64,000 nt of DNA from Planctomycetota bacterium (GTDB lineage Bacteria > Planctomycetota > UBA1135 > UBA2386). Below the pieces are notes generated by a model. That model did no database searches. It was not told the DNA's origin and was given only the letters and a program-made list of their open reading frames with translations. A program made the translations under genes and the position numbers. The DNA lies in contig JBKAGP010000001.1 in the NCBI GenBank assembly GCA_046290465.1, positions 5,504,001 through 5,568,000 on the forward strand, read 5' to 3'. How positions within the stretch are numbered: the first letter of the stretch is position 1; each line of letters begins with the position of its first letter. Below, in pieces: positions 20,003 through 32,632 of the stretch.

Positions 20003-22321
20003 TTACAGGCCGACCGCGCCTTCGCCGGTGTTGGAGGTGATGAAGCCGCGCGGGTTGGCGGCGACGTCGAAGCCGACCGCCTGGTGCCAGACCGATTGGC
20101 CGAGCCACAGCGGATCGTTGGGGATCGGCAGCGCCCATTGGCCGCTGCCGGCGGTCTGCGGCACGACCTCGAGCACGATCATGTCGAGGCCGAGTTCGCA
20201 GCCGGGCATGCCGACCGGGCCGAGATCGACCTTCGGGTCGAACGGCGTCACGCCCGCGATCATCACGAACGCCGGCACCGCGGTCGGCGCATTGGCGACG
20301 TCGACCAGCATCGTCGAGCCGAGCACCGGGCGTGCGCTCGCAACGCCCGCGACCTGCATGGCCAGGCCGCTGGAGCCGGCACAGCCGCTGCCGCTGGTCC
20401 GGTAGCCGGCGATCGGCGCCGCCGCGCCGGCCCAGATCTGCTCGGCGCGGTCGTAGGCGTCGGTGCCGATCTCCTGGCCCATCAGGCGCCCCGGGATGTC
20501 GTCGCACGGCGGGTGGATGCCGCCCCAGATGCGCGACAGCGAGCACTGGTCGGAGGCGTCGTAGTAGCTGGCCCACTGCAGCGTGACGGTCACGCTCGGC
20601 CCCTCCTCGAACACCAGGAACTGGTTCTGCGGACAGACGAACTCGCCGAGGCCGCCGGGGAAGTACGGCGAGCCGGTGAACCGGTCCATGACCACCGCCG
20701 CGGCGCGGCTGTAGGTGCTGTGGCCGGAGACGTAGCCGGCGAACGGCGGCGTCACGAACGTCGGCCGCTGGTACGGCCACCAGTTCTCGAGCAGGATCCA
20801 GCCGACGCCGGCCAGGTCGGTCGCCGGGTTGCTGATGTAGTCCGGTCCGCGCCAGGCGTAGACGGCGACCTTGCCCTCCTCACCGGCGAGGTGTTCGTGA
20901 CGCTGGCCGGGCGCGGTGCTCGCCAGCGTGACCTCCTCGATGAAGCCCGGCCGGATCGTCACCGCCTCGGGGTCGGCCGGGTTGGCGAAGTAGCGATCGC
21001 CCAGGTAGCGCAGCGCGCTGATCGGGCGCAGGTAGTCGTACCAGCCCTTGACGCCCCACGCCGAGATCGCCGCGTCGTGCATCGCGCCACCGAGCGCCAG
21101 GTAGCCCTTCACGTCCCACTCGAGGTCGCTGACGACCGGGCCGGTGCCGCCGATCTGCTTGGCGGTCTGCGGGTGGTCGGTGACGTAGTTGAAGATCGTG
21201 AACCAGTGGCCCGGCGGCGTCTCCGAGTCGGGGCCGTCGGCCCAGAACTCGGCGAGCACGCGCGCGTAGTCGGCGCGCGGGACCATCTGCGGCGCGTACG
21301 GCTGGCCGGTCACCGGGTTGGTCGCGTAACCGGTGCCGAGGTCGCCGCCGTTGGCGAAGTCGTAGAACGCCGGGTAGCTGGCGGTGCTGGTCGGCAGCTG
21401 GTTGAGCTGGATGTTGCCGATCGACGCCGGCGATGCGTCGATCATCACGCCGTCGGCCGGGTCGAGGTGCGACGACCACGCCGAGACCATCTCGAAGCCC
21501 CACTTGTAGTCGTTCGCCGACGGCGTGTTGAGCAGCGGCGGCGCGCCCGGGTCGTGGTAGACCCACCATTCGGAGCCGAACCGTTCGTGCACCGTCAGGT
21601 CGTTCTGCGACAGCGCGAACTGCTTGACCCGGCCCCACTCGGGGCTGAGGAAGTCCGGGTAGCCGGTCGGGATCGGGATGCCCGACTGGCCGATGAAGAA
21701 CTGCAGCGCCAGCGGTTGCCAGCGGTCCGGGTTCCACATGTTCGGGTTGCCGGGGAAATCGGGCAGCAGCGGCGCGTTGACCGGGAAGTAGATCGTGTTG
21801 GCGTAGCCGTTGGCTTCGTTCGAGCGGTCGTCGAGGCCGTAGGCGAGCACGGTCGCGGCGATGCGGTTGCCGATCGCGGCCGGGGTGTTGCCGGTCGTCG
21901 TCGTGTTCGACGCGACGTAGCCGAGCTGCGTCATCATGCCGTCGTAGAGCGGCAGCATCGTCGGGCCGCCCGGCGACGCCTGGAAGCGCGCGGTCAGGAT
22001 CCGGTAGGCGGCGAAGCTGAGCGCCTCGCTGCGCCACGCGTCGATGTTCGGGTCGGTGGTCGGGTGCTCCTCGTCGAACAGCACGCAATCGGCCGTCGGG
22101 CTGTAGGTCGCCCACGCGTCCCACATCGCCACCGAGACGTGGTAGAGGTTGCGCGCGTGCACCGTCGGCCGGGCGAAGTCGCTGCGGATCGACTCGAGCA
22201 GCAGCTCGTTCCACTCGCGGGCTTCGGAGTGCTGGGCGCGGGCTTCGGCAGCTGCCGAGCCGAGGATGGCGAGCGCGAGCGAGAAGCGCAGCGCACGCCG
22301 GCAGGAAGCGAGGTCGGTCAT
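20003..22321 (-). CDS. Secreted vanadium-dependent haloperoxidase-family protein with shared C-terminal domain
   Basis: VKGWYDYLRP, PPFAGYVSGHSTYS, SRIWGGIHP vanadate-binding motifs; signal ending ARAQ. Confidence 0.85.
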   Translation of the reverse strand: MTDLASCRRALRFSLALAILGSAAAEARAQHSEAREWNELLLESIRSDFARPTVHARNLYHVSVAMWDAWATYSPTADCVLFDEEHPTTDPNIDAWRSEALSFAAYRILTARFQASPGGPTMLPLYDGMMTQLGYVASNTTTTGNTPAAIGNRIAATVLAYGLDDRSNEANGYANTIYFPVNAPLLPDFPGNPNMWNPDRWQPLALQFFIGQSGIPIPTGYPDFLSPEWGRVKQFALSQNDLTVHERFGSEWWVYHDPGAPPLLNTPSANDYKWGFEMVSAWSSHLDPADGVMIDASPASIGNIQLNQLPTSTASYPAFYDFANGGDLGTGYATNPVTGQPYAPQMVPRADYARVLAEFWADGPDSETPPGHWFTIFNYVTDHPQTAKQIGGTGPVVSDLEWDVKGYLALGGAMHDAAISAWGVKGWYDYLRPISALRYLGDRYFANPADPEAVTIRPGFIEEVTLASTAPGQRHEHLAGEEGKVAVYAWRGPDYISNPATDLAGVGWILLENWWPYQRPTFVTPPFAGYVSGHSTYSRAAAVVMDRFTGSPYFPGGLGEFVCPQNQFLVFEEGPSVTVTLQWASYYDASDQCSLSRIWGGIHPPCDDIPGRLMGQEIGTDAYDRAEQIWAGAAAPIAGYRTSGSGCAGSSGLAMQVAGVASARPVLGSTMLVDVANAPTAVPAFVMIAGVTPFDPKVDLGPVGMPGCELGLDMIVLEVVPQTAGSGQWALPIPNDPLWLGQSVWHQAVGFDVAANPRGFITSNTGEGAVGL

Positions 22322-22508
22322 CGAGGTGTGGTCGCCGCGGAAGGCGGTTGCAGGCGCTGGCAGGATAGCCCGTCGGCGTGCCCGATTGGGGGCCGCCGCG
22401 GTTGGCAGCCGCGCGCGGCGCGTTCGGCGCGATGCGCGGCCTTGCGGGCCCGCGAAAACGGCCTTGGCTCCGGCGGGCCGGCCCGCCATCCGGCAGGCCG
22501 CTCGGGTC

Positions 22509-23009: not shown

Positions 23010-24121
23010 AGGTGCACCGCCTGCGCGTTGGTCCACTGCGCGAGGTTGATGCCGGTGTCCCAGACGATCGCCTGCAGGATGATGTCGGAGCCCATCATGG
23101 TCGGCGGGATGCTCGCCGGCGGCGCCAGCGGCAGGTCGACCTCGCCGTTGCTCAGCGACGTGATGCCGAGCGGGATCGCCTGCGAGGTGTCGCCGATGTG
23201 GCTGTGCGCGATCAGCGTGCCGATCAGCGGCCAGACGAACAGCGGCGGCTCGAACTGGTAGTTCGCGCCGAGCATCACGACGCCGTTCGGCGCCAGCGAG
23301 TCGGTGATGCGGACCATCAGGCCGTCGCATCGCGGCGTGCCGCTGACGTCGGGCCACAGGCCGTTCATGCTCAGGTTGGCGCCGGGGGCGCCGAGGCGCG
23401 TGCTGTTCGGGTCGAGGCCACCGACGTGCAGGTTGGGTGACGTGACCAGCGGGCCGAGGATGTAGGTCCACGGGGTCGTGTAGGGCACGCCGTTGAGGCT
23501 GCCTCCCCAGGTCGGGTCGGGGGCGCCGAGGCGTTCGTTCTCGCCGACGGTCGCGGCGGTGCCGGCGCTCAGCAGGTCGGCGCGGAACAGCGCGTGGCCG
23601 TCGGTCGCGGGCCAGTTGGGGTTGGCGGGCAGATCGATGCCGACGTAGTAGCGGCCCTCCGACGGCGCGAACGTCGGCAGCAGCGCCAGCGGCGCTTGCG
23701 AGCCGAAGCCGTCGTTGACGATCCAGGTGCCGCGTGCGGTCGACGTCGACGGCGGCGACGTCAGGCCCGAGATCCGCAGCGCCTCGCCGGCCGGCGACAT
23801 GTCGGGGCCGGGGCCGTTCGGGTCCTGGTTGCGGATCACCACGTCGTAGGTCTCCGACGTCGACAGGTTCTCGTCGGCGAGCCAGTGGTAGACGCCGAAC
23901 AGGTAGATCGGGCCGTTGGCGTCGCCGACGCTGCGGAAGTGGTCGGTCGTCACCTCCATCATCGCCTCGGCCTGGTTGGCCATGTCCGGCCGGCCGACGT
24001 ACGACGTGCAGGTAATGGTCTGCCGCTCCGGGTCCTGCGGATAGAAGACGAACGGGTTGGTCTGGGCGAGGGTGGCTCCGGCCAGCAGGGCGACGGCGCC
24101 GAGGGTGCGCGTGTGGGTCAT
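23006..24121 (-). CDS. Secreted hypothetical protein with divergent shared-type C-terminus
   Basis: MTHTRTLGAVALLAGATLAQ signal; ends IPPTMMGSDIILQAIVWD...WTNAQAVHL. Confidence 0.75.
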   Translation of the reverse strand: MTHTRTLGAVALLAGATLAQTNPFVFYPQDPERQTITCTSYVGRPDMANQAEAMMEVTTDHFRSVGDANGPIYLFGVYHWLADENLSTSETYDVVIRNQDPNGPGPDMSPAGEALRISGLTSPPSTSTARGTWIVNDGFGSQAPLALLPTFAPSEGRYYVGIDLPANPNWPATDGHALFRADLLSAGTAATVGENERLGAPDPTWGGSLNGVPYTTPWTYILGPLVTSPNLHVGGLDPNSTRLGAPGANLSMNGLWPDVSGTPRCDGLMVRITDSLAPNGVVMLGANYQFEPPLFVWPLIGTLIAHSHIGDTSQAIPLGITSLSNGEVDLPLAPPASIPPTMMGSDIILQAIVWDTGINLAQWTNAQAVHL

Positions 24122-24225
24122 GCAGACTCCGTGGTTCGACGGAGTGCGTGAGAGAGATTGGCGCGGCCAGTACCCGCGCCGTCGCCGCCGGTAACGCCGA
24201 AACGTGCGATTCTGCACTGCCGGGC

Positions 24226-25011
24226 TCAGCCCTTCGGTCGGGGTTGTTGCATCGCCAGCAACTTCTTCTGGTAGCGACCCTGCACGATGTCGACGACCAC
24301 CAGCACGGCGATCACGAAGTAGAACGTCGACTTGGCCATCGGTTCGATGTGGTAGCCGAAGAACGCCAGGTCGGCCAGGTGGCCGCCTTCGCTGAGCAGC
24401 ATCACGCCGACCAGCAGCAGCACGAACAGGCCGAGCACCTCGTACATGCGGTTCTTCTGCAAGAACTGCGAGACCCGGTCGGCGAGCCAGATCATCAGCA
24501 GGCCCGAGATCACCACCGCCACCGCCATCGTCGCGAAGTTGTCGGTCAGCGCGATCGCGCCGAGGATCGAGTCGAACGAGAACACCAGGTTCATCAGCAC
24601 GATCATCGTCACCGCCTTGGCGACGCTGACCTGCGCCGGGCCGTCGGCGTGGCGGGTGATGTCCGGCGGCGCGAGCATGTGGAAGATCTCCTTCACGGCG
24701 GTCCACAGGATGAAGCCGCCGCCGAGCAGCACGATCAGCGCGTGGCCGCTCATCGCCATGTGCACCGGGCTGGTCTCGACGTGCAGGAACGGGTCCTCGA
24801 AGAACTTGATCGCCTGCGTCAGGATGAACAGCAGCGCGATGCGCAGCACGATCGCGATCGAGATGCCCGTGCGGCGCACCCGCTGGCGGTCCTGCTCCGC
24901 GACGCGTTTGCTCTCCATCGAGATGTAGAGCAGGTTGTCGAAGCCGAGCACCGCCTGCAGCAGCGTCAGCATCAGCAGGGTGAGGAGGTTGTCGATCGAG
25001 AAGAAGTCCAT
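24226..25011 (-). CDS. TerC family membrane protein
   Basis: LQAVLGFDNLLYI, MNLVFSFDSIL, LLSEGGHLA. Confidence 0.9.
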   Translation of the reverse strand: MDFFSIDNLLTLLMLTLLQAVLGFDNLLYISMESKRVAEQDRQRVRRTGISIAIVLRIALLFILTQAIKFFEDPFLHVETSPVHMAMSGHALIVLLGGGFILWTAVKEIFHMLAPPDITRHADGPAQVSVAKAVTMIVLMNLVFSFDSILGAIALTDNFATMAVAVVISGLLMIWLADRVSQFLQKNRMYEVLGLFVLLLVGVMLLSEGGHLADLAFFGYHIEPMAKSTFYFVIAVLVVVDIVQGRYQKKLLAMQQPRPKG

Positions 25012-25247
25012 CGCCGCTGCGGAGTCTAGTGTAGAGCGTCCGACATGCGTCGCATTCTGCGCGGCCGTCGCCGACCGTCGCCGGCGTAGCTGCTCGCCGA
25101 CAGGATGTCCGGAACCTGCCTTCGTCGCAGCGCATGGCGACGAACGACGCCGACTCGCGGATCATGCCCCGTCTGCCAGGCGCCCTGCCCTGGTGCCGCG
25201 CGGCACCAGTGCGACGAGAAGTCGCAATCAGCAGCCCCGGGGCCGGC

Positions 25248-26075
25248 TCAGCCGATCAGCTGCAGGGCCAGCTGCGGCTGCGAGTTGGCCTGGGCCAGGA
25301 TCGCGACCGCCGCCTGCTGCAGGATCTGGTTGCGCGCCAGATCGGCGGTCTCGCGCGCGATGTCGACGTCGCGGATGCGCGACTCGGCCGCGGCCAGGTT
25401 CTCGGCCTGCACGGTCAGGTTGTTGATCGTGAACTGCAGCCGGTTCTGCATCGCGCCGAAGCGGCCGCGGGTGCGCGCGACGCTGTCGATCGCGGTGTCG
25501 ATCGCGTCCATCGCGGTGGTCGCCGCGCCGACGTTGCTGAGGCCGAGCACGTCGAGGCCGAGGCCGGTCGCCAGCACCGGGGACAGGCCGGCGCTCAGGG
25601 TGTTGACGGTCTGGTCGGTACCCGCGCCGACCTGGAACGTCACCGTCGACGACGATCCGTCCAGCAGGTTGATGCCGTTGAACGCCGTCGAACGGCCGAT
25701 GCGGTCGATCTCGTCGACCAGCACCTGGAACTCCTCGTCCAGCGTCTGGCGGTCGGCCGACGAGATCGTGCCGTTGGCCGACTGCACCGCGAGTTCGCGC
25801 AGACGCAGCAGGATGTTGCCGACCTCGTCGAGCGCGCCCTCGCCGGTCTGCACCAGGGAGATGCCGTCCTGCGCGTTGCGCCGGGCCTGGTCGAGCGAGC
25901 GGACCTGGGCGCGCAGCCGTTCGGAGATCGCCAGGCCCGCGGCGTCGTCGGCCGCCGTGTTGATGCGCAGGCCGGTCGCGAGCCTGCGGAAGTTGCCGGC
26001 CAGGCGCTCGTTGATCGAGGCCAGCGCCCGCTGCGCGGTTCGCGACGCGATGTTGGTGTTGATGCGCAGGGCCAT
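25248..26075 (-). CDS. fliC: Flagellin (short, 275 aa)
   Basis: MALRINTNIAS, RLATGLRINTAADDAAGLAIS, RNAQDGISLVQTGEGAL, SRIRDVDIARETA...QAN. Confidence 0.92.
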   Translation of the reverse strand: MALRINTNIASRTAQRALASINERLAGNFRRLATGLRINTAADDAAGLAISERLRAQVRSLDQARRNAQDGISLVQTGEGALDEVGNILLRLRELAVQSANGTISSADRQTLDEEFQVLVDEIDRIGRSTAFNGINLLDGSSSTVTFQVGAGTDQTVNTLSAGLSPVLATGLGLDVLGLSNVGAATTAMDAIDTAIDSVARTRGRFGAMQNRLQFTINNLTVQAENLAAAESRIRDVDIARETADLARNQILQQAAVAILAQANSQPQLALQLIG

Positions 26076-26232
26076 GGCTCCGGCAGGCATCGGCCGTCCT
26101 CGCGGCCGGGCCACAACGCGCGGCGCACCGCGCGGTGGTGCCGACGCTTCGATGCCATGGCGAACGGGCCGGCCGAGGTTCTGGCGGTCCGCAGGGACCG
26201 CCGGGCGGCCGTTCGCGTAGCATCCGGGCCGC

Positions 26233-26784
26233 ATGAGTCGCCGCACCAAGATCGCCCTGATCGTCCTGTTGCTGTTGCTGCCGGCCGCCTGGTTCGGCGG
26301 CATGGCCTACATCCGCTCGCACGTCACCGACCTGATCCAGCACGCCGTCGACAAGCCGCTGCCCGACTTCACGCTGGTCGACCGCGACGGCAAGACGTGG
26401 TCCAAGCAGGACCTGCTCGGCAAGCGCGCGGTGCTGCACTTCTTCCGCTCGTACTGCCACTCGTGCGACGTCGAGGCGCCGGCGATCCGCGCGCTCGAGC
26501 AGGCCAGGCCGGACGACACCATCTGGCTGCACGTGATGACCGACGTCGTGCTCGACGTCGACGAGGCGACCACCGAGGCGACCATCGCCCGCAAGGAGTT
26601 CACGGCGCCGATCCTGATGGCGGACGAGGCGTTCATGGAGCTGTTCCACAAGGCCAGGTGGTCGCAGGTGACGCCGATCACCTACGTGGTCGACAAGCAG
26701 GGCATGGTGCGATTCGGCCTGCGCGGGCTGCAGACCGAGCAGACGATCTCGGCGGCGGTGTCGGCCGTTGGCAAGGGCGGGTAG
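26233..26784 (+). CDS. Membrane-anchored TlpA/redoxin-like thioredoxin-fold protein
   Basis: N-terminal TM; PDFTLVDRDGK; SYCHSC (CxxC); TPITYVVDKQG. Confidence 0.85.
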   Translation: MSRRTKIALIVLLLLLPAAWFGGMAYIRSHVTDLIQHAVDKPLPDFTLVDRDGKTWSKQDLLGKRAVLHFFRSYCHSCDVEAPAIRALEQARPDDTIWLHVMTDVVLDVDEATTEATIARKEFTAPILMADEAFMELFHKARWSQVTPITYVVDKQGMVRFGLRGLQTEQTISAAVSAVGKGG

Positions 26785-26867
26785 CATCCGCGGCAGGCTC
26801 GCGGCGGCGCATGCCGCGGCGCTGCCCCGGAACCCGATCGCGGCCACCGCGTTGGCCGCCCGCTGCC

Positions 26868-27725
26868 ATGAACCCGACCCCGACCGCGTTCGTCCTGAGC
26901 CTCGCCGTCGCCGCAGCGCTGTCCGCGCAGGACCGCCCCAAGGACCCGCTGGCAGCCGCCTGGTGGGATGCCTTGGCCGCGGCGAAGCAGCACAAGGCAC
27001 CGATCCTGGCGTTCGTGTTGCCACCGAAGGGGCAGCTTGCCGTCGGCGATCGTGCCGCGCGGACCCGCAAGGCCGAGGTCGCGGCCGGCATCCTGCGGGT
27101 CGGTCGCGCGCCGGCGATGCGCACGGCCAGGGACGTGATGCTGCGCCAGGTGCAGCTGCTGCGGCGCTACGACGGAACCCTGATGGAGCAGCCCAGGCCG
27201 ACCGATGCGCAGATGGTGTTCGCGCTGTCCGTGCCGGTGTTCGCCAGCGCCGCGGCCTGCGGCGCGAAGGAGCGCGAGAACGTCGTGCTGCTCGACGCGC
27301 GCGGCCAGCGGCTGCGCGGCTTCGGTCTCGATCTGCTCAACCGCGACGCATTCGTGAAGGCGCTCGGCGCGCCGTTGTTCGACCGGCAGGCGATCCTGGC
27401 GCGGCAGGCGACCGTGACCCCGGCCGGTCGGCAGGCGCTGGCGTCGCTGCAGCGGGAGCTGCGCGAGAACGAGGGCCGGGTGTCCGCCTACGCCGCCGAG
27501 CAGAAGCTCGCGACGCTGGCGCCGCGGCTGCACGACCTGGGCCCGGCCCTGGTCGAGGAACGTGAGGGCAAGCTCGCGCCGGTGCGGGAGTTGTGGGGCA
27601 TCGAGGGCGCGCGTGCGCCGCTCGGGACCAAGGCCGAGCAGCAGCTCGGCGACCCGTGCCCGGGGTGCGGCATGGGCTACACGCCACCCGCCCTGCAAAC
27701 GATCCTGAAGCTGGTCGGGCCGTAA
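26868..27725 (+). CDS. Secreted 285-aa protein with near-C-terminal CPGCGMG motif (candidate MNIO substrate)
   Basis: Signal MNPTPTAFVLSLAVAAALSAQ; ends GDPCPGCGMGYTPPALQTILKLVGP. Confidence 0.75.
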   Translation: MNPTPTAFVLSLAVAAALSAQDRPKDPLAAAWWDALAAAKQHKAPILAFVLPPKGQLAVGDRAARTRKAEVAAGILRVGRAPAMRTARDVMLRQVQLLRRYDGTLMEQPRPTDAQMVFALSVPVFASAAACGAKERENVVLLDARGQRLRGFGLDLLNRDAFVKALGAPLFDRQAILARQATVTPAGRQALASLQRELRENEGRVSAYAAEQKLATLAPRLHDLGPALVEEREGKLAPVRELWGIEGARAPLGTKAEQQLGDPCPGCGMGYTPPALQTILKLVGP

Positions 27726-27895
27726 CTTCGTCGTCGCCGATGCCTAGGAGGAGCTGAGTCGGTCCGCCGGCTCTGGCGCTGCTGCACGCTGCCACGTGCA
27801 TCCTGTCTTCTCTCCAAGGGTCCCATCGCAACGACTCCTCCCCGGGGCGGCGAAGCAGCAGCGCCTTCCATCCGCCGGCCGTTAGGATCGCGGCC

Positions 27896-28957
27896 ATGCC
27901 ACGTCTCTCCTCCGTCGTCGCGGCCGTGCTGGCCGCGATCGCGTTCGTCGCCGCGAGCCCGTGCCAGAACGGCAGCAAGCGGGCGGTCCAGGTCTTCGTG
28001 CTGGCCGGCCAGTCCAACATGGAGGGCAAGTCCCAGAACAAGCTCTGGGAGCACCAGTGCGTCGCCGACGCGACCCGCGCGTTCTTCGCGCCGTTCCGCG
28101 ATGCCGCGAACGAAAGCTGGGTCGTGCGCGACGACGTCTGGATCAAGTTCTTCGGCAGGAAGGGGCCGTTGACGCTCGGCTTCGGCAGCAACGGGCGCAC
28201 CGGCCTCGAGTATGCGTTCGGTCTGCGCGTCGGCGATCACTTCGAGGAGCCGGTGCTGCTGATCAAGACCGCGTGGGGCGGCCGTTCGATCCGCAGGGAC
28301 TTCCGGCCGCCGTCGGCGGGGCTGCCGGGCGACGCGGTGCTCGACAAGGAGCTCGCCGACGCCGTCAAGCGCACCAGGAACAACAACGAGAAGCGCAAGC
28401 GCAACGACCCGCTGCCGACGCGCGAGCAGATCGTGGCCGGCTACGGTCGCGACTACCGCCTGATGATCGAGGAGGTGCAGCAGACCGTCGCGGCGGCCGG
28501 CTCGCTGTTCCCGCAGCTGCAGGGTCGCGAAGCGCAGCTGGCGGGCTTCGTCTGGTTCCAGGGTTGGAACGACCAGTACGGCGGCGCCGAGCTCGAGTAC
28601 GAGCAGAACCTGCGCCACCTGATCGCCGACGTGCGCAAGGACCTCGGCGTCGACGACCTGCCCGTGGTCATCGGCGTGATGGGCCAGAACGGCGCCGAGC
28701 CGGCCAAGGGCGCGATGCTGGCGATCCAGCGGGCGCAGACCAAGGTCGCCGATCTCGACGGGGTGGTCGCGGTGACGACCGCCGACCTGCAGGATGCGGC
28801 GGCCGCCAAGCTCTACCCGGAGTGGAAGAAGCGCTTCGAGGAGTGGGAGCGCACCGGCTCGGACCACCCGTACCATTACCTCGGCAGCGCGATCTGGTAC
28901 TCGCGCATCGGCTTCGCGCTGGCCGACGCCGTGATCGAACTGCAGGGCGGGCGATGA
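27896..28957 (+). CDS. Sialate O-acetylesterase-like (SASA/DUF303, SGNH) secreted protein
   Basis: VFVLAGQSNMEG, LLIKTAWGG, FVWFQGWND, YHYLGS. Confidence 0.88.
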   Translation: MPRLSSVVAAVLAAIAFVAASPCQNGSKRAVQVFVLAGQSNMEGKSQNKLWEHQCVADATRAFFAPFRDAANESWVVRDDVWIKFFGRKGPLTLGFGSNGRTGLEYAFGLRVGDHFEEPVLLIKTAWGGRSIRRDFRPPSAGLPGDAVLDKELADAVKRTRNNNEKRKRNDPLPTREQIVAGYGRDYRLMIEEVQQTVAAAGSLFPQLQGREAQLAGFVWFQGWNDQYGGAELEYEQNLRHLIADVRKDLGVDDLPVVIGVMGQNGAEPAKGAMLAIQRAQTKVADLDGVVAVTTADLQDAAAAKLYPEWKKRFEEWERTGSDHPYHYLGSAIWYSRIGFALADAVIELQGGR

Positions 28958-28973
28958 GACTCTGTGACGAGCG

Positions 28974-29846
28974 ATGAGCGACGCTCCGCTGGTCGGCATC
29001 GCGCTGCAGCCCGAGCCGGTGTTCTTCGAGCACAACCGGCGGCTGCTCGAGGAGCGCGCGCAGCTGTTCGAGGTGACTCCCGAGACGCTGTGGACGAACG
29101 GCTGCGAGCCGGGCCCGGGGCACCAACGGCTGCTGCGGTTCACGGCCGCGGCGGGCCGGCCGGTCGTCGGCCACGGCGTGCTGTGCTCGATCGGCGCCGC
29201 CGCGCCGCCGGCGCGCCGCGCGCGGTGGCTGCAGGCGCTGCGTCGCGACGCGCAGGCGTTCGGGTTCGGCTGGCTCAGCGAGCACCTCGGCTTCGCCGAC
29301 GTCGACGGCCTGCACGTCGCCTGGCCGCTGCCGCTGCCGTGCACCGACGAGGCCGCCGACGTCGTCGCCGCTTCGCTGCGCGAGCTGCGCGGTGCCTGCG
29401 GTGAGGTGCTGTTCGAGAACAACGCCGACCTGTTCTGCCTCGGCGATCCGCTCGACCAGGCCGAGCTGTTCGCGCGCATCTGCGAACGTGCCGACGCCGG
29501 CCTGCTGCTCGACCTGCACAACGCGTTCGCGTTCTGTCGCAACGTCGGCGTCGATCTGCACGCGTTTCTCGAACGGCTGCCGTGGCCGCGCGTGCGCGAA
29601 CTGCACCTGAGCGGCGGCAGCGACAGCGACCCGGAGCTGCTGCCGTCGCGGCGGTCGCTGCGGCTGGATTCGCACGACGGCGCCGTGCCCGACGAGGTCT
29701 GGCGCGCGCTGCAGTTCGCGCTGCCGCGCGCAAGCGGGCTCCGGGCGGTCGTCTGCGAGTGGTTTCCGGACGCGATGGACGCGGCGGCCGGCGCGCAGTT
29801 CGCCGCCGACTTCGAGCGCGCGCGCGCGATGGTGGAGGCCAACTGA
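28974..29846 (+). CDS. DUF692 family multinuclear non-heme iron oxidative enzyme (MNIO)
   Basis: GHGVLCSIG, WLSEHLGF, LFENN, LLLDLHN, ELHLSGG, LDSHDGAVP, VCEW iron-ligand motifs. Confidence 0.9.
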   Translation: MSDAPLVGIALQPEPVFFEHNRRLLEERAQLFEVTPETLWTNGCEPGPGHQRLLRFTAAAGRPVVGHGVLCSIGAAAPPARRARWLQALRRDAQAFGFGWLSEHLGFADVDGLHVAWPLPLPCTDEAADVVAASLRELRGACGEVLFENNADLFCLGDPLDQAELFARICERADAGLLLDLHNAFAFCRNVGVDLHAFLERLPWPRVRELHLSGGSDSDPELLPSRRSLRLDSHDGAVPDEVWRALQFALPRASGLRAVVCEWFPDAMDAAAGAQFAADFERARAMVEAN

Positions 29847-30175
29847 TGCTGCTCGACCTGCAGCGGCTGCTGGTGGCGGCGTTGCGCACGCCCGATCCCG
29901 CCGGGTTCCTGCGCGAACGGGCCGAGCGCGAGCCCGGCCTGCGGGCGGACGAGCGACGCGCGCTGCTGGCCGCGGGTGAGGACGGCGTGCGCATGTCGCG
30001 GGTGATGATCCGCAAGCTGCGCCTGCAGCGCATTCTGCGCGGCGACCCGGACGCGGCCGCGGCGATGGCCCGCGACCCGGAGGCGTTCGCCGCGAGGTTC
30101 GCGGCCTACGATCGCGACGTCGCGCCGACCGCCGTGACGCCGCCGGACGAGGCGGCGCAGTTCCGCGCCTACTGA
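29846..30175 (+). CDS. Small helical protein, probable MNIO partner
   Basis: ATG overlaps the MNIO stop (TGATG); MLLDLQRLLVAAL...FAARFAAYDRDVAPTAVTPPDEAAQFRAY resembles the small partners encoded after MNIO genes. Confidence 0.7.
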   Translation: MLLDLQRLLVAALRTPDPAGFLRERAEREPGLRADERRALLAAGEDGVRMSRVMIRKLRLQRILRGDPDAAAAMARDPEAFAARFAAYDRDVAPTAVTPPDEAAQFRAY

Positions 30176-31449
30176 GCGCGCGGCGGCCAGCCCGGCAGCG
30201 TCGCGCGCAGGTGGGCGTCGAGCGTGCTGCGCTCGTCGCGGGTCAGGCGCACGTCGCCCGGCGGCACGCCGCGCACGATCGCCACCTGCAGCCGCTGCAG
30301 GACCCGTCGACGCAGTTCGTCCGGCATCCGGCCGAACGCCGGCGCGTGCACCATGGGCGACAGCGGCAGCGTGAACGTGCGCCTGTGCAGGTCCAGGGTG
30401 CCGAGCCCGATGTCGTCGCCGGAGCGCGGCCACCGCGCGGCGAACGCGCGCGCGAACCCGGGCTCCGGGGCGCAGGCGTGCGGCGACAGGTCGGCCTCGC
30501 CGTCGAGCAGCAGCGCGGCCGCCAGCTGCCGGGCGAGGTCGTCGACGATGCGGCGGGTCTGCGCGCGCATGCCCTGCTCGTCGAGGATCTCGTTGACGAC
30601 GCGGTCCTTGTCGAGCAGGTAGCGCGTCTGCAGCGACGCACGCACCATCAGGTTGTGGATCGCCGCCTGTTGCTCGAGCGCGAGCAGCGCGCCGATGTCG
30701 CTGGTCGCGACCGGGTAGGTGTCGGCGGCGAAGCCGAACGCGTCGGCGAGTGCGGTCAGGTCCGCCGCGGGCTTCGACGCGACCAGGTAGCCGCCGCGGC
30801 CGTCGTCCTCGGCGATGCCGTTGCCGCGGTGCGTGCCGACGAACGTGCCGGTCACCAGCCAGCCGCCCCAGCGGTCGGCGATCGGCTGCCGGAAGTCCAT
30901 GTCGGCTTCGCCGGCGTCGACGATCGGGTCGCCGACCTCGTCCGGGAACACCGAGCGCAGCAGCAGGCCCGGCTCGTCGTGCGTGCGGGTGCTGGCGTGG
31001 CAGCGCAGGCAGGTGTCGTCGCGCACCAGCCGCGGTCGCTGCGCCGGGTCCTGCGTCAGCGTGTAGAACGCGACGCCGAGGCGGTCGTCGCCGACGGCGA
31101 CCTCGAGCGACGCGGCGCCCGGGATCCAGCCGACGTAGGCGTCGCTGTTGAAGTAGAGCGCGCGCGGGTTGGCCGGCGAGATCCGGTGGCGCTGCAGGCT
31201 GGTCTTGCTGAACACCAGCGTCTGGCTCTCGACGGGGATCTCGAGCGCGCGCAGCAGCGCCAGCAGGCGGCCGCGCCGGCCTTGGCTCGGCAGCTCGACG
31301 CTGCCGTCGGCGAGGCGCGCGTCGAGGCGCGTCGCCGCGTTGTCGTCCTCGGTGCGGCGGTAGGTGTTCGGCGACCGCTTGTGGAACGCCTGCCCCGCAA
31401 GCGGTGCGGCGCACAGGCCGGCGAGCAGCAGCGCGAGGACGGGACGCAT
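30169..31449 (-). CDS. Secreted protein with a single CxxCH (possible c-type cytochrome)
   Basis: Signal ending LAGQ; SQTLVFSKTSLQ, ISPANPRALYFN, CLRCH, DRWGGWLVTG, SDIGALLALEQQ. Confidence 0.75.
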   Translation of the reverse strand: MRPVLALLLAGLCAAPLAGQAFHKRSPNTYRRTEDDNAATRLDARLADGSVELPSQGRRGRLLALLRALEIPVESQTLVFSKTSLQRHRISPANPRALYFNSDAYVGWIPGAASLEVAVGDDRLGVAFYTLTQDPAQRPRLVRDDTCLRCHASTRTHDEPGLLLRSVFPDEVGDPIVDAGEADMDFRQPIADRWGGWLVTGTFVGTHRGNGIAEDDGRGGYLVASKPAADLTALADAFGFAADTYPVATSDIGALLALEQQAAIHNLMVRASLQTRYLLDKDRVVNEILDEQGMRAQTRRIVDDLARQLAAALLLDGEADLSPHACAPEPGFARAFAARWPRSGDDIGLGTLDLHRRTFTLPLSPMVHAPAFGRMPDELRRRVLQRLQVAIVRGVPPGDVRLTRDERSTLDAHLRATLPGWPPRAQ

Positions 31450-31453
31450 GCGG

Positions 31454-32632
31454 CTACTTGCGGCGCAGCAGCCAGACGAAGCCCGTGATCTCTTCCTTGA
31501 CGAGCTTCGCCTTCTCCTTCTGCATCGCCTCGTACTTCGTGCCGAAGTCGTCGCCGCCGTTGTTCGACTCGAACAGCTTCTGCAGCTTCTTGTTCCAGGC
31601 GTCGAGCTTCTGGGTCGCTTGCTTCTGGTCGACGCCTTCGTTGAGGTGCGTCAGCGTCAGCTGGTCCCCGACCAGCAGGTCGAGCTTGCCGTCGCCGTCG
31701 ACGTCGCTGGCCCAGACGCGCGTGCCGCTCTGCGGGCCGGTGACGTGCTCGTCACCGAAGCGTGGCGCGCCGTCCATCCGCATGCCGTGGCCGGTCGGCT
31801 CGAGCAGCGTCTGGCGCGCGCCGAACTTCGGCGCGGTCTTGCTGCCCTCGTTGACGAACAGGAACGCGCCGCCCTCGGCCGAGCCGCTGAGCAGGTCGAG
31901 GTCGCCGTCCCGGTCCCAGTCGACCAGGAACGGGTCGCTGTGCATGCCGACCTTCAGCGGCTCGCCGCCGCGCTCGAGCCAGCTCGCCTTCGGCGCGAAG
32001 CGGCCCTTGCCGTCGCCCTGGAAGAACCCGAACGTGCCGAGGAAGTTGCCGGCGACCAGGTCGAGCTTGCCGTCGCCGTCGAGGTCACAGGCGAACGGCC
32101 GCGTGCAGATCTTGCCGATGATCGGATCGGCGTCGTCGCCGCCGGTCGCCGGCAGGATCAGCGGCTCGCCGTCGGTTCCGTGCAGCGCCTCGGGCTTCTG
32201 GAAGCCGCCCTTGCCGTCACCGTAGAGCACCTGGAACAGGCCGGCCATGTCGCGGCCCGGTCGCGAGTACGAGCCCGAGAGGATGTCGGTGTGGCCGTCG
32301 CCGTTGAGATCCACGAACTGTGGAGTCGACGACGTGCATCACCAGACGCCGGGCACCTCGGCGATGGCGCCCTCGGCCTGCAGCCAGTCGCCCTTCTGCA
32401 GCGAGCCGTCCTTGCTGCCCTTGCACAGCAGCATCCTGCCGCCGGCGAACTGGCCGACGACCAGGTCGTGGTGGCCGTCGCCGTCGACGTCGTGCCAGCA
32501 GGGCGCGGCGTAGCCGGGGGCCTCGACCTTGACGTCGGCGCCGCCCGCCTGGACGCGGACCGGGGGGTGGAACAGCGCGCCGGGGCCCTGCGGGCAGCTG
32601 GCGATCGCGAGGAGGAGCGTGGAGGTGAGCAT
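31454..32632 (-). CDS. FG-GAP/VCBS repeat protein with one in-frame TGA (putative selenoprotein, W-U-C)
   Basis: One frame from ATG 32632 through TGA 32339-32341 into the 31454..32314 ORF: ...AEVPGVW*CTSSTPQFVDLNGDGHTDILSG; DxDGDGxxDL repeats on both sides. Confidence 0.75.
32297..32333 (-). promoter_or_regulatory. Putative bacterial SECIS element
   Basis: After UGA: GUCGUCG pairs with CGGCGAC; upper stem UCCAC/GUGGA closes apical loop AGUUC (G at position 2), 19 nt from UGA. Confidence 0.6.

Follow-up and report, generated by a model that had tools for sequence, protein, structure and literature searches.

What does an MNIO (DUF692) enzyme modify when no short precursor peptide is encoded beside it? 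The question is raised by a locus in a 64,000-nucleotide stretch of DNA (hereafter the window) from a Planctomycetota bacterium (assembly GCA_046290465.1, contig JBKAGP010000001.1, positions 5,504,001 to 5,568,000). The host genome is 70% G+C, and close homologs also carry the Planctomycetota label. A first-pass annotation described five co-oriented genes forming one system, in which the MNIO acts on a full-size secreted protein. We consider the likely answer to be a three-gene protein-modification cassette, in which the MNIO and a small partner modify two cysteines of the exported protein. The underlying observation is real and conserved. All five open reading frames (ORFs) indeed lie on the plus strand; the core features are as follows.

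26868-27725, plus strand: putative MNIO substrate protein P0001, 285 aa, without a Pfam family
26868-26927, plus strand: likely Sec signal peptide, residues 1-20, assigned by eye, with cleavage presumed before Q21
26943-27401, plus strand: thioredoxin-like domain (residues 26-178) lacking a CxxC at the active site (AF2 model and structure search)
27657-27677, plus strand: CPGCGMG core motif, residues 264-270, the predicted modification site (motif conservation and complex model)
27678-27722, plus strand: 15-residue follower, residues 271-285, a predicted recognition element (length, tail pattern, and complex model)
28974-29846, plus strand: MNIO (DUF692) P0002, 290 aa, PF05114, of a clade outside the ChrH/DybH-like clade
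29846-30175, plus strand: helical partner P0003, 109 aa, with a possibly Hc-like N-terminal half and a DUF2063-like extension

A conserved motif and its follower

The motif lies where it was first reported, with exactly 15 residues after it. Its conservation among homologs, proposed as a check, is borne out: the motif is kept in 17 of 17 close homologs, with C264, C267, G268, M269, and G270 invariant (both cysteines and the GMG are kept in sixteen close homologs). Six-frame translation of the genome yields 13 CxxCGM sequences, just two of them followed by a stop 14-19 codons later. Because so few fit, and because homologs conserve the motif, its presence here is not due to chance.

A substrate profile search returned 155 clusters at 50% identity. 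Among the 150 listed, 120 carry CxxCG[M/L/I/F/V], two retain the second cysteine only, and 28, which are either fragments or CxxCG[R/Q/E/T] variants, fall outside the pattern. The tail Cys-Gly is present in all 113 full-length members and the CxxC in 110. Across the family, the residues that follow are constrained as well: the follower is 13-27 residues long in all 122 motif-bearing representatives (exactly 15 in 75 of them), and the pattern R-x-[FL]-L-x-[FL] stands 10-16 residues after the Cys-Gly.

Spacing between the cysteines defines a second subtype. The CxxC occurs in 156 of 219 distinct tails (18 of these have a further upstream cysteine too) and is absent from 63. In 62 of the 63, a cysteine lies 4-25 residues upstream, mostly 14-22; the remaining tail is cut by a contig edge. 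A second cysteine is thus retained, at a variable distance. In this long-spacer subtype, the upstream cysteine is usually itself part of a Cys-Gly. Two genomes, G011 (locus L027) and G024 (locus L029), each hold two cassettes, one CxxC and one long-spacer.

By analogy with DybH, the long-spacer subtype might form larger rings. In DybH, the first cysteine acts only in the last step, ring closure, and glutathione can replace it (PMC13733907); the enzyme also tolerates CPPCGMG, as well as a ring expanded by one residue (PMC12636315). On these grounds, larger rings are a reasonable expectation.

At three loci (L212, L216, and L219), tandem substrate paralogs have lost the Cys-Gly motif and retain a follower-like tail. 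Locus L126 encodes a different variant, a twin-arginine peptide of about 100 aa that has the CxxC motif (position 2501 of the matching strand) and a follower-like tail, without the thioredoxin body. It may connect the thioredoxin-fold substrate family with the short precursors of chryseobasin type.

Three genes rather than five

Searches of 101 related genomes found the substrate protein in nine, the window's own included. Co-occurrence with DUF692, also proposed as a check, holds: at nine non-self substrate loci the MNIO is the next gene in seven and is separated by the SASA gene in one, so that eight have it within about 2 kb; the ninth is at a contig end. The substrate gene lies upstream at 12 of 13 MNIO loci drawn from GTDB.

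In a broader sample of 401 Planctomycetota genomes, 139 matched, mostly through short, weak matches to a helical stretch; only long matches at E <= 2e-9 were retained, which left 20 genomes besides the window's own. All 20 carry the partner family, as against 24 of 400 overall, a co-occurrence that is partly circular, since the partner profile was built from substrate-chosen loci, and that counts non-independent kin. The cassette clade is present in 25 of the 401. Among 25 substrate regions, 17 contain the MNIO, one has only the partner, at a contig edge, and seven have neither; each of these seven either lies at a contig end or is an additional copy in a genome whose MNIO and partner stand at another locus. 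Conversely, 51 partner loci include 48 with an MNIO and 40 with a substrate tail within 1.5 kb, and wider regions at ten partner loci supplied three more substrates, leaving two clear exceptions. Substrate genes also form tandem arrays, of up to seven copies (L216). Four loci (L016, L029, L050, and L281) have an MNIO apparently frameshifted or in pieces beside substrate genes, through decay or assembly error.

The other two genes of the proposed five are:

26233-26784, plus strand: CxxC redoxin (CHSC; TlpA/ResA-like; PF00578), a neighbour at genus level, outside the core
27896-28957, plus strand: SASA esterase (PF03629), inserted between substrate and MNIO in the window's genus, not core

One or both lie near the cassette at four of 48 loci (three of 48 for each): three loci in the window's genus, and one (L039) in a named record whose MNIO is 71% identical. 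Both genes are intact in G013, a genome of the same genus (92% complete) that has no substrate gene and only a remnant of the MNIO; this joint loss is a single case, and an assembly fault could account for it. The five-gene system is therefore rejected in favor of a core of substrate, MNIO, and partner. The redoxin and the esterase are genus-level passengers.

A separate small precursor as the conserved neighbour was considered too, and rejected. As the first-pass annotation had reported, there is no short cysteine-rich precursor nearby: a scan of positions 24000-32500 for short Cys-motif precursors gave only in-frame pieces of the cassette genes and off-frame ORFs.

The partner and the predicted complex

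The partner ORF starts within the MNIO stop, overlapping it by one base (TGATG), as expected for the reported translational coupling; in three proteins, moreover, the partner family is fused to the MNIO carboxyl terminus. Neither P0003 nor P0001 has a Pfam match above cut-off, and the same holds for the partner family (31 rows). The P0003 model is all-helical, and in a comparison with 48,161 chains three known MNIO partners took ranks 1, 5, and 10, at modest Z scores of 4.2-5.3: NGO1945 (3dee; Z 5.3, root-mean-square deviation (rmsd) 2.1, 57 residues aligned), MbnC, and TglI. Its Atlas neighbours are DUF2063, SCO6045_C, and MbnC-like. The partner is small and soluble rather than ChrI-like, as had been claimed.

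Sequence comparison suggests that the amino-terminal half of the partner resembles the carboxyl-terminal domain of ChrH-type enzymes. Residues 2-59 align with ChrH-type tails plus split Hc (probability 67.6, E 5e-5); the same comparison with the untrimmed alignment gave no match, and P0003 itself has none to the carboxyl-terminal part of NF050165. Residues 60-109 are an extra segment of about 50 residues, absent from Hc; split Hc-type partners in the sample have about 70 aa, as against 109 for P0003. Split ChrH-type systems were seen at five loci (L052, L069, L071, L109, and L121), where short, proline-rich precursors bear a signal and Hc is encoded by a gene of its own (about 70-100 aa).

The MNIO, the partner, three irons, and substrate residues 245-285 were modelled together, along with three controls. 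The complex scored 0.92, as against 0.57 for the best control; of 157 solved complexes 116 attain the score mark, as do 2 of 215 mismatched ones, though these figures carry over only roughly. Contact agreement between runs was at least 63%, and partner pLDDT (predicted local distance difference test) at least 61. In this model, of a kind that the first-pass annotation had proposed as a check, the motif is placed at the iron site, where the tail contacts H67, H104, D232, H234, and E262, and the follower on the partner: I279, L280, L282, and V283 pack on residues 53-60 and 74-86, in the long helix and the extension. This contact region is conserved (K57, L58, R59, R62, F81, and F85). The model supports tail binding by MNIO and partner together.

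Enzyme placement and chemistry

P0002 scores 136.6 bits against PF05114 (curated cut-off 25), and the genome has no other PF05114 gene. On the claim of intact iron ligands, nine candidate residues of the iron site are unchanged across all 31 aligned rows: H67, H104, E148, D180, N183, H211, D232, H234, and E262. Six of these have counterparts of similar spacing in DybH (H65/H102/D179/H210/D228/H230 for H67/H104/D180/H211/D232/H234), matched by numbering rather than by alignment.

Family models and trees separate P0002 from its better-known relatives. Its scores are 120.5 bits on the ChrH model NF050165 (cut-off 600) and 115.8 on the bufferin model NF050167 (cut-off 310). For comparison, a metagenome scan for the motif gave 119 stretches, 80 of which were taken on: 26 hold short motif-terminal precursors beside an MNIO, and 20 hold substrate-family members, 11 of them with an MNIO within the stretch covered. 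Ten ChrH-like enzymes from beside such short precursors score 239-395 bits on NF050165, whereas 89-120 bits are reached by six enzymes of the P0002 clade, half of them from substrate loci and half fused to the partner, a comparison made among sequences other than MelH. In trees, the ChrH-like enzymes form their own long branch (support 100) that excludes P0002; these references are uncharacterised metagenomic homologs with short motif-terminal precursors, not ChrH, DybH, or MelH themselves. Bufferin-like rows form a clade of their own. Monophyly of the substrate-linked enzymes is compatible with the tree rather than established (approximately unbiased test, p-AU 0.76); the trees were built by a quick method, the 40-row tree omits 23 of 63 rows, including the two longest branches, and the single outgroup is too few to identify a sister group. 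A plasmid search returned, among the best 40 of 302 matches, only DUF692 proteins 28-33% identical. Bufferin-like MNIOs are present too in G024, G028, G036, and G043.

Placement outside the ChrH-like clade, together with near-equal ChrH and bufferin scores, means that the product may differ. One alternative keeps the substrate and changes the chemistry: a thiooxazole- or oxazolone-type heterocycle, or separate modification of each Cys-Gly. Consistent with it are the separate clade, the low identities (28-39% to ChrH-like and 29-32% to bufferin-like enzymes), the upstream Cys-Gly of long-spacer tails, and variation in the residue after the tail Cys-Gly. Even so, we think it unlikely. The motif and the preceding Asp-Pro are identical to those of short ChrH-type precursors, the partner's amino-terminal half seems to resemble the ChrH-type domain, and DybH itself takes CPPCGMG and the larger ring. 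P0002 probably works like a ChrH-type enzyme, though outside that clade as sampled.

The substrate as a probable scaffold

The signal peptide claimed for the 285-aa protein is supported by eye and by conservation: a hydrophobic stretch, A-x-A, and a near-invariant Q21. Its start is Sec-like, unlike that of the many relatives with a twin-arginine sequence (65 of 113 full-length members by a loose pattern, 5 of 113 by the Pfam TAT_signal model). In the monomer model (AF2; pLDDT 88), a thioredoxin-like domain (residues 26-178) is followed by a helical part, a flexible motif loop (pLDDT 54), and an ordered tail. The best structural match, 3fk8, is middling (Z 6.6, rmsd 2.8, 104 residues aligned), and nearly all of the 50 rows listed are thioredoxin-fold entries by title; the Atlas comparison points to the same fold. 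Foldseek with the substrate and partner models gave no match at E 0.001, nor did a sequence search with the substrate profile turn up any relative of solved structure. None of the 113 members carries a CxxC at the position of the thioredoxin site, following the first core strand. From the models, the substrate is probably an unannotated thioredoxin-fold family, serving as a redox-inactive scaffold. (A TPR (tetratricopeptide repeat) substrate like MelA1 was considered and rejected: TAT_signal is the only Pfam family found in the 113 members.)

Might the protein instead be a mere carrier, from which a housekeeping protease releases the modified carboxyl-terminal piece in the style of a classic RiPP, a peptide made on the ribosome and modified after translation? 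The flexible motif loop would suit such release, tandem arrays recall multi-precursor libraries, and the tail stays conserved although body identity falls to about 20%. The thioredoxin-like body is nonetheless retained family-wide, and no conserved protease or transporter was found among the neighbours of 36 loci, where Ser/Thr kinases (8 of 36) are the sole recurring extra family. Carriage of this kind is improbable. That the protein is not a substrate at all, with the MNIO acting elsewhere and the cysteines forming a disulfide or metal site of the usual sort, is more improbable still. In its favor, CxxC is a frequent motif, redox activity is conceivable for a thioredoxin fold whose cysteine pair is displaced, and orphan copies exist; against it, the genes are tightly coupled and jointly lost in G013, the genome's only MNIO has no other precursor nearby, and the motif matches that of proven substrates and fits the complex model.

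Several observations weigh against the three-gene cassette as described, besides the partial circularity noted above. Some members carry R, L, or T in place of the motif methionine, and a few substrate paralogs lack the Cys-Gly. Five substrate copies have no nearby MNIO, in genomes with the cassette elsewhere, and L276 and L277 have MNIO and partner without an adjacent substrate. P0002 fits the ChrH model no better than the bufferin model, and in the trees a long stem sets it apart from the ChrH-like clade. The monomer model shows a strand at follower residues 278-282 (pLDDT 73-85); the tail may therefore be structural, and it would have to be free during modification. Finally, solved MNIO-partner-peptide complexes may account for part of the complex score.

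For the cassette, the following sequence of events can be proposed. MNIO and partner would form a cytoplasmic heterodimer, as gene coupling, the fusions, and MelH/MelHc suggest. The partner's carboxyl-terminal helices would grip the 15-residue follower, presenting Cys-Gly-Met to the iron site. By analogy with DybH, C267 would be oxidised by four electrons, converting Cys-Gly-Met to a hydantoin, and C264 would close a thioether ring, for a change of -4 Da and a free thiol. The substrate would then be exported, through Sec here and probably through twin-arginine translocation (Tat) in many relatives, to display the modified loop on its redox-inactive scaffold. As for its use, the best guess, at somewhat less than even odds, is an extracytoplasmic site that binds metal or is thiol-reactive.

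Relation to known systems

The principle of whole-protein MNIO modification is already published, contrary to the first claim of a new concept. In Candidatus Melainabacteria, MelH and the separately encoded small MelHc install a -4 Da change on the 34-kDa secreted MelA1; in ArlA an embedded motif is modified, and ChrI is dispensable (PMC13056109, whose text mentions Planctomycetota once). The MelA1-MelH-MelHc cluster shares with the present one a secreted substrate of about 30 kDa, CPxCGMG, an MNIO with a coupled small helical partner, and the lack of ChrI. MelA1, however, is a TPR protein with the motif at its very end, whereas P0001 is thioredoxin-like with a 15-residue follower.

The ChrH/DybH/ArlH subfamily likewise has the motif, an export signal on the precursor, and a CPxCGxG precursor beside the enzyme (PMC10214503, PMC13056109, PMC13733907, PMC12636315). 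Its motif is typically carboxyl-terminal, as in MelA1 (ArlA is the published exception), in contrast to the follower found throughout this family; and DybH reads the seven-residue motif alone, in short peptides and without a partner, where follower and partner are predicted from the model to take part here. Long precursors and short DUF2063-like partners are noted in PMC12452194. These PME-type 2 partners are, like P0003, short and helical and follow the MNIO, but are linked there to precursors without a signal peptide; the substrates here are exported. Bufferin and oxazolin systems have a Buf1, Buf2, or EGKCG precursor and a DUF2063-RRE partner of about 250 aa, neither of which occurs here.

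The terms Planctomyc-, Tat, and thioredoxin are absent from the main text of PMC12452194, and a literature search covering mostly the main texts of non-subscription papers found no thioredoxin-fold, follower-bearing, or Tat-exported MNIO substrate family. The enzyme clade, the thioredoxin-fold substrate family, the follower-docking model, and the long-spacer subtype thus appear undescribed. Members of the P0002 clade may nevertheless be contained in the enzyme lists of PMC13056109 (Table S2 and Dataset 1, Planctomycetota included) and in the adjamnio alignments of PMC12452194.

Neighbouring genes

Three further genes, all on the minus strand, were noted around the cassette.

30169-31449, minus strand: 426-aa signal-bearing protein with a CxxCH-like stretch, without a Pfam match, convergent with the partner gene and in synteny across the genus
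25248-26078, minus strand: stand-alone flagellin gene immediately upstream, divergent from the redoxin
20003-22489, minus strand: 828-aa exported protein whose PSGH-like motif suggests a likeness to vanadium haloperoxidases

Implications

The cassette gives a candidate substrate family, a partner, and a recognition rule for an uncharacterised MNIO clade. A conserved, folded scaffold bearing the motif is also a handle on the function of chryseobasin-type modification, which short peptides do not offer. A bolder reading is conceivable, if doubtful: a distinct MNIO subfamily for folded, exported thioredoxin-fold proteins, reading the follower through the extended partner and forming macrocycles of 4 to about 25 residues on paralogs encoded in arrays of up to seven, recognition being uncoupled from ring size. 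Were long-spacer members cyclised, ring tolerance would go far beyond the one extra residue accepted by DybH. Such an enzyme would be a follower-directed, size-tolerant protein cyclase with a short, portable tag, of use in protein engineering.

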